Shown here piece by piece: positions 20,429 to 28,758 of a stretch of DNA of 53,991 nucleotides. Position numbers and translations under genes: made by a program. Under the pieces are notes generated by a model, which was not told the origin of the DNA, searched no databases, and saw only the letters and a program-made list of their open reading frames with translations. Positions within the stretch are counted from its first letter, which is position 1, and every line of letters begins with the position of its first letter. The stretch comes from Candidatus Moranbacteria bacterium CG10_big_fil_rev_8_21_14_0_10_35_21 (GTDB lineage: Bacteria > Patescibacteriota > Minisyncoccia > Moranbacterales > UBA2206), in NCBI GenBank assembly GCA_002773095.1, contig PFCG01000029.1:1-53991 (forward strand), read 5' to 3'.

Positions 20429-22606
20429 ATGGAACAAAAAAAATGGTCTCTTCAGCTTGGAGAGAGAAACTTAGAGGTTGAAACTGGTCTTTTGGCTGGT
20501 CAAGCCAACGGAGCAGTAACTGTCAGATACGGTGATACTGTGGTTTTAGCTACCGCCGTGATGAGCAAAGGTGCTTCTAGAATAAGTGGTTACTTTCCTT
20601 TGATGGTTGATTTTGAGGAAAGATATTATGCCGCTGGAAAAATAAAAGGTTCAAGATTTATTAAAAGAGAAGGTCGTCCTTCTGACGCTTCTATTCTTTC
20701 TGGAAGAATGGTGGACAGAACTATTCGTCCGCTTTTTCCTTCCCGAATGAGAAATGATGTGCAAGTGGTTTTGACTGTTCTTTCTTATGATGGAGAAAAT
20801 GATCCAGCTCTAGTAGCCGTTATTGCAGCTTCCACTGCTCTTTCTATCTCTGATATTCCTTGGAATGGTCCTGTAGCCGCTGTGCGAGTGGGGAAAACAA
20901 CTGGGCCTGCCCTCAATGCTTCGCCAGCTCAACAGTCTGATAGCAAACTTGGTGACAAGCATAGCGATGCAGGCGGGGATTTAATTTTAAACCCAGTCAA
21001 TGGAGAAATTAGCGATGGTTCTTTGGACTTAGTGATTGCCGGAACTAAAAACAAAATAAATATGTTGGAAGCTGGAGCGAAAGAAATTCCTGAAGCAGAA
21101 ATTTTGAAAGCGCTTCAATTCGGTTCAGAATATGTCAAAAAAGTAGCTGAATTTGTTGAAAGTATTCAAAAAGAAATCGGAAAACCAAAATCAGAACCAG
21201 CTTTATTAAAAGGAACAGATGAATTTGAAGCTAAAGTGAAAGAAATTCTTTTGGCTGAAGGTTTAGCGACCGCTCTTTATGATCAAGATAAAAAGGTAGT
21301 GGAAGAAAAAACAGAAGCTACTAAAGAAAAAGTAAACCAGTATATTAAAGAAACCTTTACTGAAGATGTGGATAGATTGTTGGAAATTTCCGGAGAAGTT
21401 TTTGAAGAAGTCTCTGACGAGATTGTTCATCAAAACGTTCTAGAAAAAGAGCAACGACCAGATGGACGCAAACTGAATGAAATTAGGAAAATTACTTGCC
21501 AAACTGGAATTTTACCAAGAACTCATGGCACCGGGCTCTTCACTCGTGGAGAAACTCAGGCTTTGACCGTGACAACTCTTGGATCTCCTGGAGATGAGCA
21601 AATCATCGATACTATGGAGGTGGATATGAAAAAAAGATATATTCATCACTACAATTTCCCGCCTTTTTCTGTGGGAGAAACAAAACCCATGCGTGGGCCA
21701 GGCCGACGTGAAATAGGTCATGGTGCACTGGCAGAAAAAGCCTTAATTCCGGTTCTTCCTTCTAAGGAAGATTTCCCTTACACTATTCTTCTGGTTTCAG
21801 AAATTCTTTCTTCTAATGGATCTTCTTCTATGGCTTCTACTTGTGGCTCTACTTTATCCTTAATGGACGCTGGAGTGCCTATTAAGCGACCTGTCAGTGG
21901 AATTGCTATGGGAATTATTGTGGGCGCTACGGATGATAAGTTTAAAGTTTTGACTGATATTCAAGGATTAGAAGATCATTATGGTGATATGGATTTTAAG
22001 GTGGCCGGAACAGAAAACGGAATTACCGCTCTGCAAATGGATGTAAAATTAGCTGGAGTGACTCTTCCAATGTTGGAGGCAGTCTTGAAGCAATCGTATG
22101 AAAATCGTTTGGAAATTTTGGAAAAGATAAAAACCGCTATTGCAGAACCAAGAACTGAAATGTCACAATATGCACCTAGAATTATCACTATGCACATTAA
22201 TCCGGAAAAAATCAGAAATGTTATTGGAGCTGGAGGAAAAATCATCAATGAAATTATTGATGAAACTGGAGTGCAGATTGATATTGAAGATGATGGGTCA
22301 GTTTTCATTACTTCTGTTGATGCTGCTTCCGCTAAAAAAGCTCAGGAGTGGATTCATAGCCTTACCCGGGAAGTTAAGGCCGGAGAAACTTTTGAAGCTA
22401 AGGTAATTAAACTAATGGACTTTGGAGCTTTTGCTGAAATTCTTCCAGGGCAAGATGGATTAATCCATATTTCTGAAATGGCAGACAAGCGAGTGGAAAA
22501 AGTGGAAGATGTTGTTAAAGTAGGCGACATTGTGCCAGTTAAGGTCAAAGAAATTGATAGTCAAGGAAGAATTAGCCTTTCTATGAAAGCAGCTATTAAA
22601 AAGTAG
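20429..22606 (+). CDS. pnp: polyribonucleotide nucleotidyltransferase (PNPase)
   Basis: Two RNase PH domains (RREIGHGALAE, SNGSSSMAS, DMDFKVAGT) plus KH and S1. Confidence 0.98.
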   Translation: MEQKKWSLQLGERNLEVETGLLAGQANGAVTVRYGDTVVLATAVMSKGASRISGYFPLMVDFEERYYAAGKIKGSRFIKREGRPSDASILSGRMVDRTIRPLFPSRMRNDVQVVLTVLSYDGENDPALVAVIAASTALSISDIPWNGPVAAVRVGKTTGPALNASPAQQSDSKLGDKHSDAGGDLILNPVNGEISDGSLDLVIAGTKNKINMLEAGAKEIPEAEILKALQFGSEYVKKVAEFVESIQKEIGKPKSEPALLKGTDEFEAKVKEILLAEGLATALYDQDKKVVEEKTEATKEKVNQYIKETFTEDVDRLLEISGEVFEEVSDEIVHQNVLEKEQRPDGRKLNEIRKITCQTGILPRTHGTGLFTRGETQALTVTTLGSPGDEQIIDTMEVDMKKRYIHHYNFPPFSVGETKPMRGPGRREIGHGALAEKALIPVLPSKEDFPYTILLVSEILSSNGSSSMASTCGSTLSLMDAGVPIKRPVSGIAMGIIVGATDDKFKVLTDIQGLEDHYGDMDFKVAGTENGITALQMDVKLAGVTLPMLEAVLKQSYENRLEILEKIKTAIAEPRTEMSQYAPRIITMHINPEKIRNVIGAGGKIINEIIDETGVQIDIEDDGSVFITSVDAASAKKAQEWIHSLTREVKAGETFEAKVIKLMDFGAFAEILPGQDGLIHISEMADKRVEKVEDVVKVGDIVPVKVKEIDSQGRISLSMKAAIKK

Positions 22607-28410: not shown

Positions 28411-28758
28411 TGTCATCCTGAACTTGTTTCAGGATCTCAAAAACATGAAACAATATTGCGTTTACATCAACACAAATAAAAATAATACAACTCTTTATAT
28501 CGGGGTGACTAATAATTTACCAAGGAGAATGTATGAGCATAAAAATAAAATAACTAAGGGTTTTACAGCAAAATATAATGTTAATAAATTAGTATACTTT
28601 GAGCAAACTGAAAATATATTGAGCGCCATTCAAAGGGAAAAACAGCTAAAAAATTGGCATAGGGAATGGAAAATAAATCTTATTAATAGTATTAATCCAA
28701 AATTGGAAGATCTAAATAAATCTTTATTAGAAGATCCTGAAACAAGTTCAGGATGACA
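28411..28758. mobile_element. GIY-YIG cassette bounded by perfect 27-bp inverted repeats
   Basis: TGTCATCCTGAACTTGTTTCAGGATCT (28411-28437) and exact reverse complement (28732-28758). Confidence 0.8.
28445..28756 (+). CDS. small GIY-YIG nuclease (UPF0213-like)
   Basis: YCVYI..TLYIGVTNNL.RRMYEHK..FTAKY..LVYFE..AIQREKQLKNW.REWK; stop codon lies inside the right repeat. Confidence 0.92.
   Translation: MKQYCVYINTNKNNTTLYIGVTNNLPRRMYEHKNKITKGFTAKYNVNKLVYFEQTENILSAIQREKQLKNWHREWKINLINSINPKLEDLNKSLLEDPETSSG

Follow-up and report, generated by a model that had tools for sequence, protein, structure and literature searches.

In-frame copies of a small palindromic repeat in a Candidatus Moranbacteria genome: the 72-nucleotide insert of pnp as a probable old member of the family

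The gene for polynucleotide phosphorylase (PNPase), pnp, lies in a 53,991-nucleotide contig of a Candidatus Moranbacteria bacterium (assembly GCA_002773095.1, contig PFCG01000029.1, forward strand; this whole stretch is referred to here as the window). It raises a simple question: how did some two dozen extra codons come to stand in the middle of a core enzyme? An initial annotation, made from the sequence alone, had read them as an in-frame, GC-rich nested hairpin at 20905..20977, and had proposed that mobile palindromes are adding peptide loops to core proteins of the Candidate Phyla Radiation (CPR) or else are removed at the RNA level. The answer argued below is that the insert is quite probably an old copy of a small, selfish DNA repeat, partly decayed by now and absorbed in frame.

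The host gene is intact. The open reading frame (ORF) at 20429..22606 (+) encodes a complete PNPase of 725 amino acids that matches all five PNPase families of Pfam (RNase_PH twice, RNase_PH_C, PNPase, KH and S1) and the solved PNPase 5yjj (E 6.5e-215); pnp is present in all 41 genomes considered, the source genome and 40 relatives. Alignments of the product to solved PNPases are interrupted at query residues 156/182, where the 8zaw chain is at residues 167/169. PNPase loci were requested for the 40 relatives, and the 29 that were returned were aligned with MAFFT. All 28 that are readable at the insert site have a clean 24-column gap there (VRVGKV-N, then GEFILNP); the 29th (L037) has X at the site owing to masked bases. 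The insert is therefore exactly 72 nt, or 24 codons, at 20906-20977, with a boundary that may slide by the GGG flanking it on both sides. Thus the alignment proposed in the initial annotation finds the site empty in every readable relative, as it is in the solved enzymes, and bears out the extra in-frame residues; of the originally assigned span the 24 codons stand, and the true start is one base later. The GC content at the insert is 0.53 in 80-nt windows, against 0.35 genome-wide, a value also reached by two other parts of pnp and so not unique to the insert.

Is the insert one of a kind? The whole assembly (753 kb, 32 contigs) was searched by similarity and then with a fuzzy search for element ends, and the answer to the search for further copies that the initial annotation had suggested is unambiguous. 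Two matches are long: G000:C22:4140-4213, with 82% identity to the pnp insert over 74 nt, and G000:C18:31213-31287, with 77% over 75 nt. Many others are to the element's two ends only. About 20 copies with common ends are found in the genome, with lengths of 36, 39, 52, 54, 69, 72, 74, 75, 90, 102 and 105 nt. The basic unit is a palindromic and modular 36-mer, CCTGCCCGCAATGCTWCGCATAGCGWTGCAGGCGGG; in the larger forms (54-105 nt) a second, diverged unit is nested in the centre of the first. The initial annotation had allowed that an insert conserved across the clade, with no other copies in the genome, would speak against mobility; the insert is missing from the relatives, and other copies abound.

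The pnp insert (20906..20977, +; residues 160-183, PALNASPAQQSDSKLGDKHSDAGG) is a two-layer, in-frame copy of this dispersed hairpin repeat, with a decayed inner layer. Its outer left unit, CCTGCCCTCAATGCTTCG (20906..20923, +), has one mismatch to the family 18-mer and reads PALNAS. The outer right unit, CATAGCGATGCAGGCGGG (20960..20977, +), is the exact family consensus with W=A and reads HSDAGG. The inner 36 nt (20924..20959, +) are a nested unit: its left half resembles the units nested within the C22 and C18 copies, and its right half is no longer complementary, as judged by comparison of the copies and by the lost significance of the fold. Two further stretches of 102 nt, at G000:C29:11313-11414 and C30:1735-1836, have element-like ends, between which 70-76 nt of AT-rich sequence show no palindromy; these could be nested copies that have decayed, or ends that carry other DNA.

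The structure of the unit was examined in an alignment of 38 distinct 36-mers from other genomes. In the best register, taken from the energy fold, an interrupted hairpin of 11 bp comes after a CCTG tail of 4 nt, with 95.5% of cells paired, and within it the pair 16-26 covaries (UA in 21 units, AU in 13, other in 4) to a score that is reached by none of 500 shuffles. Two other registers were dropped for this one: a continuous 16-bp hairpin (82.2% paired, with 88 of 500 shuffles as good) and a two-helix arrangement with a 6-nt internal loop (88.9% paired). Intact copies fold above shuffles: the C22:4140-4213 copy at z -3.83, the C18:31213-31287 copy at z -2.46, and others at z -4.76, -3.23 and -2.60.

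Where the copies lie is more telling. Sixteen of the 20 copies of the source genome are within ORFs of at least 100 aa, mostly housekeeping genes. Apart from PNPase, the hosts are DnaK, GrpE, PolA (DNA polymerase I), pyruvate kinase, the CCA-adding enzyme, AtpG and AtpH (ATP synthase gamma and delta), Fpg, Dus, MiaA, SMC, a GT1 glycosyltransferase, an MBL-fold hydrolase, a rubrerythrin-like protein and one unknown protein; 14 of these 15 were named by Pfam. In 13 of the 16 the element lies on the coding strand and begins at a codon boundary, so as to read PARNA[ST]...HS[VD]AGG, where one in four would be expected (p 4e-6). The same frame is found in other genomes, for which 80 flanked loci from species-representative genomes served as the comparison: it is used by 27 of 35 unambiguous in-ORF copies, and by 20 of 24 at low-GC loci. 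Copies inside genes are stop-free, and their lengths obey a rule that is relaxed elsewhere. Inside ORFs, 34 of 35 lengths are multiples of three and one is not; outside long ORFs the figures are 21 and 16 of 37, some of the long odd lengths being perhaps two adjacent copies merged by the end rule. About half of the copies in other genomes (37 of 78) lie outside long ORFs. Since in-gene lengths are multiples of three and lengths outside genes often are not, the pnp insert is most likely translated as a loop rather than removed. The peptide of the dominant frame, to judge from its residues, suits a surface loop, being hydrophilic and capped by Pro and by Gly-Gly.

Empty orthologous sites are not confined to pnp. 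In pyk a 35-residue insert is missing from all 19 relatives with a match, and the two pieces of the alignment are contiguous or nearly so in their DNA. In atpG a 30-residue insert is missing from 18 of 19 relatives. The exception is G002 (L217, G002:C33:6500-7800), which has an insert at the identical codon junction with the same two 18-nt ends, and with an unrelated AT-rich interior that makes it 35 residues long rather than 30. Either shared ancestry followed by decay of the interior or a hot spot hit twice could account for this sequence. Taken together, the empty sites and the G002 case indicate insertions of different ages, whose interiors drift to ordinary linker while the ends persist, as they do in pnp. 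With about 20 copies, 16 of them in genes, and with sites in pnp, pyk and atpG that are empty in relatives, the proposal that core CPR proteins gain peptide loops from mobile palindromes holds up well.

The element is not confined to this genome. Of 201 genomes sampled from the order, 70 have its 18-mer with up to one mismatch, at up to 23 matches per genome, and it is found in 11 of 12 other families; a reversed-pattern control gave no match in any of the 201. In a phylum-wide sample of Patescibacteria 28 of 401 genomes have it. An exact search of species-representative genomes gave at least 121 loci, and the record titles among the matches listed name many Patescibacteria groups and also Verrucomicrobia, Lentisphaerae, Kiritimatiellia, Deltaproteobacteria, Bdellovibrionales and Gammaproteobacteria metagenome-assembled genomes (MAGs). 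Several contigs labelled Gammaproteobacteria or Bdellovibrionales (for example L053, L058, L062, L066, L068 and L093) have 33-43% GC and a CPR-like context of tiny GIY-YIG genes and tRNA clusters; these labels may accordingly be unreliable, which would narrow the cross-phylum spread. High-GC loci (53-61% GC) of the Planctomycetes-Verrucomicrobia-Chlamydiae group carry the element outside Patescibacteria beyond doubt. Closely packed copies are seen in other phyla (L117, L127, L059, L114), among them two abutting 36-mers at L117:1483-1554 and a 120-nt tandem duplication that includes the element at L127:1501-1656; a Lentisphaerae MAG has copies arranged head to head.

How would such a repeat come to lie in frame in a core enzyme? 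We propose that its spread takes place in DNA, probably with a single-stranded hairpin as intermediate, and that it would insert without duplicating its target; nested forms would arise when one unit enters the apical centre of another. Copies inside genes would persist only if the frame is kept, no stop is introduced and the peptide is harmless, and selection of this kind would be the origin of the frame bias. In the dominant frame the unit would contribute Pro-Ala-Arg-Asn-Ala-Thr/Ser ... His-Ser-Val/Asp-Ala-Gly-Gly. The pnp copy would have entered the turn between two beta strands, to be translated as a loop without demonstrated benefit. An AlphaFold2 model of the PNPase, built from 27 sequences, is consistent with this. 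In it residues 159-182 form a coil whose pLDDT stays below 50, flanked by strands 150-156 and 185-187 of the first core, and the Pfam RNase_PH_C match spans the insert site (residues 148-234, model positions 2-66 of 67). Thus the insert is probably a disordered 24-residue loop at the turn that joins two beta strands in the first RNase PH-like core. The modelling that had been suggested at the outset yields a coil loop between strands.

The identity of the mobilising enzyme is a separate matter. No consistent target-site duplication is evident in 40 flank pairs and no parent insertion sequence (IS) in 80 flanked loci, so that the element does not qualify as a MITE (a miniature transposable element with inverted repeats). 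A search for the Y1/RAYT transposase (PF01797) gave no match at E<=1 in the source genome, which is 94.85% complete. An all-against-all comparison of ORFs in the 80 flanked loci left only two recurrent neighbours, a ribosomal-protein operon (in four genomes) and a cluster of GIY-YIG genes of about 80 aa. In L096 and L102 the element lies no more than 20 nt from the start codon of the nuclease, which Pfam assigns to PF01541 (GIY-YIG). Matches to the L102 nuclease at E<=1e-15 are found in 103 of 401 Patescibacteria genomes. Among the 30 best loci the fuzzy 18-mer stands just upstream of the start codon in six of the 12 whose nucleases are closest (60-70% identity) and in none of the 18 others; by eye, several further nuclease loci have hairpin variants with the same feet. 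At these loci an incomplete copy of a tRNA's 5' part is split by the hairpin at its D-loop, and an intact tRNA gene (Gln, Lys, Asn, Thr, Val or Pro) lies 3' of the nuclease gene in all 14 loci scanned. Of the 28 element-positive genomes 20 have the nuclease, and of the 373 element-negative genomes 83; the odds ratio of 8.7 overstates the association, since related genomes are not independent. The position of the hairpin directly upstream of tRNA-linked nuclease genes in other Patescibacteria makes the tiny GIY-YIG clade a plausible, unproven, mobiliser.

Several observations weigh against this account or parts of it. None of the 12 tiny GIY-YIG genes of the source genome is flanked by the 36-mer hairpin (other hairpins are found there). 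In five high-copy genomes of the order an element is found within about 350 nt of only two of 34 GIY-YIG matches (G196:C16 and G194:C28), a few of the 34 being long ORFs of another nature, and one high-copy genome with 26 pattern matches has a single tiny GIY-YIG gene. Adjacency being rare in the window's own order, we rate the nuclease as mobiliser at somewhat less than an even chance. Recent mobility finds no support in the metagenomes: contigs from four DNA runs, inspected over 20600-21300, show no polymorphism of filled and empty sites, those of the identical strain spanning the pnp insert and none joining across its site. Selection need not be the whole cause of the frame bias. Four or five of the unit's six frames contain no stop, so that avoidance of stops is insufficient to explain the use of a single one. 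The flanks of 40 in-frame copies are A-rich on the 5' side and G-A-rich on the 3' side (typically K/E before the element and E/D after it), the last codon ahead of it having A in 22-25 of 40 copies and the first base beyond it being G in 21 of 40, and a target preference for such K/E-rich sequence could add to the bias. The covariation comes down to one column: the search pattern fixes the left 18 nt of the 38 36-mers, leaving only column 16 free to vary. The PNPase model is only moderate (mean pLDDT 67.7, pTM 0.69). Finally, the hairpin of the pnp copy is by itself no better than chance (z -0.2 to -0.9). A 96-nt stretch folds as DNA at -12.2 kcal/mol, against -11.5±2.3 for dinucleotide shuffles (z -0.32, equalled by 68 of 200), and as RNA at z -0.21 (75 of 200 shuffles as good); the 72-nt insert alone folds as DNA at z -0.89 (38 of 200 as good). 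Of the GC-rich nested hairpin in the initial annotation, then, the named arms are present in the DNA and the fold does not rise above shuffles. The fold is at chance level because the inner half has decayed, and the palindromic origin of the insert rests on membership of the family rather than on its own fold.

A more ambitious interpretation of the nuclease loci would make the 36-mer the mobile end of miniature cassettes, each composed of the hairpin and an ~80-aa GIY-YIG gene, that home to the tRNA D-loop and restore the tRNA; the nuclease would also seed solo hairpins genome-wide and across phyla, by insertion that is biased in strand and codon phase at junctions of A-rich and GA sequence. 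We regard this, taken as a whole, as possible and rather doubtful.

The most serious competitor, tentative though far from negligible, is that the repeat is copied by other means, such as a transposase acting in trans and absent from the assembly, template switching at hairpins, or gene conversion, and that the hairpin next to the nuclease is merely one more insertion in the hairpin-prone DNA of a tRNA D-arm. The GIY-YIG genes of the source genome, which lack the element hairpin, and the rarity of adjacency in the five high-copy genomes both fit this proposal. So does the placement of copies as seen by eye, non-coding ones being often central in larger palindromes of the flanks and nested forms amounting to entry at hairpin centres. 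Against it, the position of the hairpin is constant, between the partial tRNA 5' part and the start codon, across five tRNA types, the element tracks the closest nuclease clade, and a Y1/RAYT transposase is lacking in a 95%-complete genome. In the non-coding copies L069, L092, L109, L115 and L156, the 7-9 nt that flank the element on one side are, by eye, complementary to those on the other; these copies look as if they had been inserted in the loop of an existing hairpin, for example a terminator.

A second competitor, which we consider improbable, is that the ends are kept for use by the host: either the peptide motif (PARNA..AGG) would be bound by a protein, or the DNA or RNA structure would matter, as has been suggested for repetitive extragenic palindromes (REPs), through transcription, mRNA stability or supercoiling. 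In its favour, the bias to a single frame is very strong, and both the atpG insert of G002 and the pnp insert keep ends of the family type around interiors that have become unrelated or have decayed. Against it stand the location of 37 of the 78 copies elsewhere outside long ORFs and the covarying pair 16-26, which alters amino acids (Thr/Ser, Val/Asp) while base pairing is kept. The host proteins, moreover, are unrelated, and the insertion sites are missing in close relatives.

That the insert is cut from the mRNA or skipped by the ribosome, leaving the protein unchanged, is very improbable. Skipping has a parallel in the translational bypass elements of yeast mitochondria, whose setting is that of GC-rich hairpins in AT-rich genes. 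A GC-rich hairpin in an AT-rich gene is what is found here, and nothing more direct speaks for skipping. A constraint on length and frame is needed only if the insert is translated, and the in-ORF copies, stop-free, predominantly in one frame and almost without exception multiples of three, thus count against both splicing and bypass. No intron-like features were seen, and the drift of the decayed interior is that of any ordinary hydrophilic stretch of coding sequence. The removal at the RNA level that had been offered as an alternative is consequently unsupported. Lineage-specific expansion of a loop with palindromy by chance, for which one could cite the insert's unexceptional fold, is already refuted by the 82% and 77% DNA identity to copies in unrelated genes and by ends common to about 20 copies in the genome and hundreds elsewhere.

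The source genome holds other hairpins and other small nucleases that deserve a brief description. A tiny GIY-YIG gene in the window (28424-28756, +; a 110-aa open frame with the likely start MKQYCVYIN) is flanked on both sides by a different hairpin repeat that starts with TGTCATCCTGA and fits the start (HGTCWY) of the published pattern for Ssn-related motifs (SRM). Its arms recur at a close paralogue, G000:C18:34414-34638, which lies 350 nt from the 36-mer copy inside atpH. Six more of the 12 such genes in 753 kb (C12:23374-23574, C24:1802-2014, C13:4848-5048, C15:224-409, C17:133-339 and C19:13782-13988) are placed between a partial tRNA copy, interrupted by some other GC hairpin, and a seemingly intact tRNA gene, which is the architecture of the L102-type cassettes. 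An identical stretch of at least 70 nt that starts with CCTGCCCGCAGGGGTCAAATAGAACAC recurs at five contig ends (C3:7317, C9:53, C18:57073, C21:71 and C25:115409); it is an unassembled repeat with only its first 10 nt in common with the hairpin element.

If the insert of pnp is indeed an absorbed repeat, a bacterium with a minimal genome tolerates selfish hairpin DNA in core enzymes (PNPase, DnaK, DNA polymerase I, subunits of ATP synthase) and slowly absorbs it as loops. For annotation, such inserts resemble lineage-specific loops and are worth recognising. For protein evolution, the atpG and pnp copies show an interior turning into ordinary linker. A 36-mer that is nearly identical in what the record labels call several phyla points to a sequence-specific enzyme; were that enzyme the tiny GIY-YIG nuclease, it would have a new specificity among the single-strand nucleases described in 2025, and if the cassettes exist as outlined above, hairpin repeats would regularly furnish ultra-small bacteria with new surface loops in their core proteins.

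How does the element compare with known systems? In the literature on CPR palindromic elements, on MITEs and REPs, and on GIY-YIG nucleases we found no description of the element, neither 14-mer, and no family of miniature hairpin-plus-GIY-YIG cassettes, the figure logos and supplements of PMC3733652 and PMC11893778 excepted. In the available part of PMC11270868, GIY-YIG occurs only within rRNA insertions. The inverted repeats of Nematomorpha mitochondrial genes are embedded in coding sequence and translated (PMC6649704); those are long perfect repeats in organelle genes, unlike the dispersed 36-nt family described here. The NTS/SRM hairpin repeats are paired with small single-domain nucleases of the GIY-YIG type that act on single strands (Ssn; Chenal et al. 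2025, PMC11893778), which are of the cd10448 clade and cut ssDNA next to the hairpin. The present element is likewise a multicopy hairpin. In other Patescibacteria it is found in the flank of a small GIY-YIG gene (L096, L102 and six of the 12 closest homologues), though at none of the 12 GIY-YIG genes of the source genome and rarely in its order. It differs in that its cassette is at tRNA genes; the nuclease is identified here at the level of Pfam (PF01541). Membership of SRM was rejected: the 36-mer has no GTC on either strand and does not fit the pattern HGTCWY...RNCYNB as given in the text of PMC11893778.

The GTAG/CGTC REPs are 20-40-bp palindromes with a short non-palindromic tail, some of them intragenic (Di Nocera et al. 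2013, PMC3733652). In that paper, intragenic dimers specify peptides of 20-30 residues, genes for replication and repair being notable hosts, and Opitutus terrae (Verrucomicrobia) is rich in such REPs. The likeness is evident in the short palindrome, the non-palindromic tail and the partly intragenic location; the tail of the 36-mer, in contrast, is CCTG, GTAG occurring only in the reverse-strand centre of the W=A variant and not at an end, and the source genome has no RAYT, the transposase that goes with GTAG REPs. The Rickettsia palindromic elements (RPEs) are about 150 bp long, confined to Rickettsia, and placed in frame in unrelated housekeeping genes, with a conserved peptide that is compatible with the fold of the host protein (PMC10969869). 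Here too dispersed palindromes of a small-genome bacterium are found in frame in unrelated genes whose orthologues lack the insert. RPEs differ from the present 36-nt modular, nested unit, whose labels span several phyla and which has a candidate nuclease partner. Thus, with no GTAG/CGTC tag, no fit to SRM and no RAYT, the element works like the known classes without belonging to any of them; in-frame palindromic repeats were already known from Rickettsia and from REPs, and this 36-mer family is another example.

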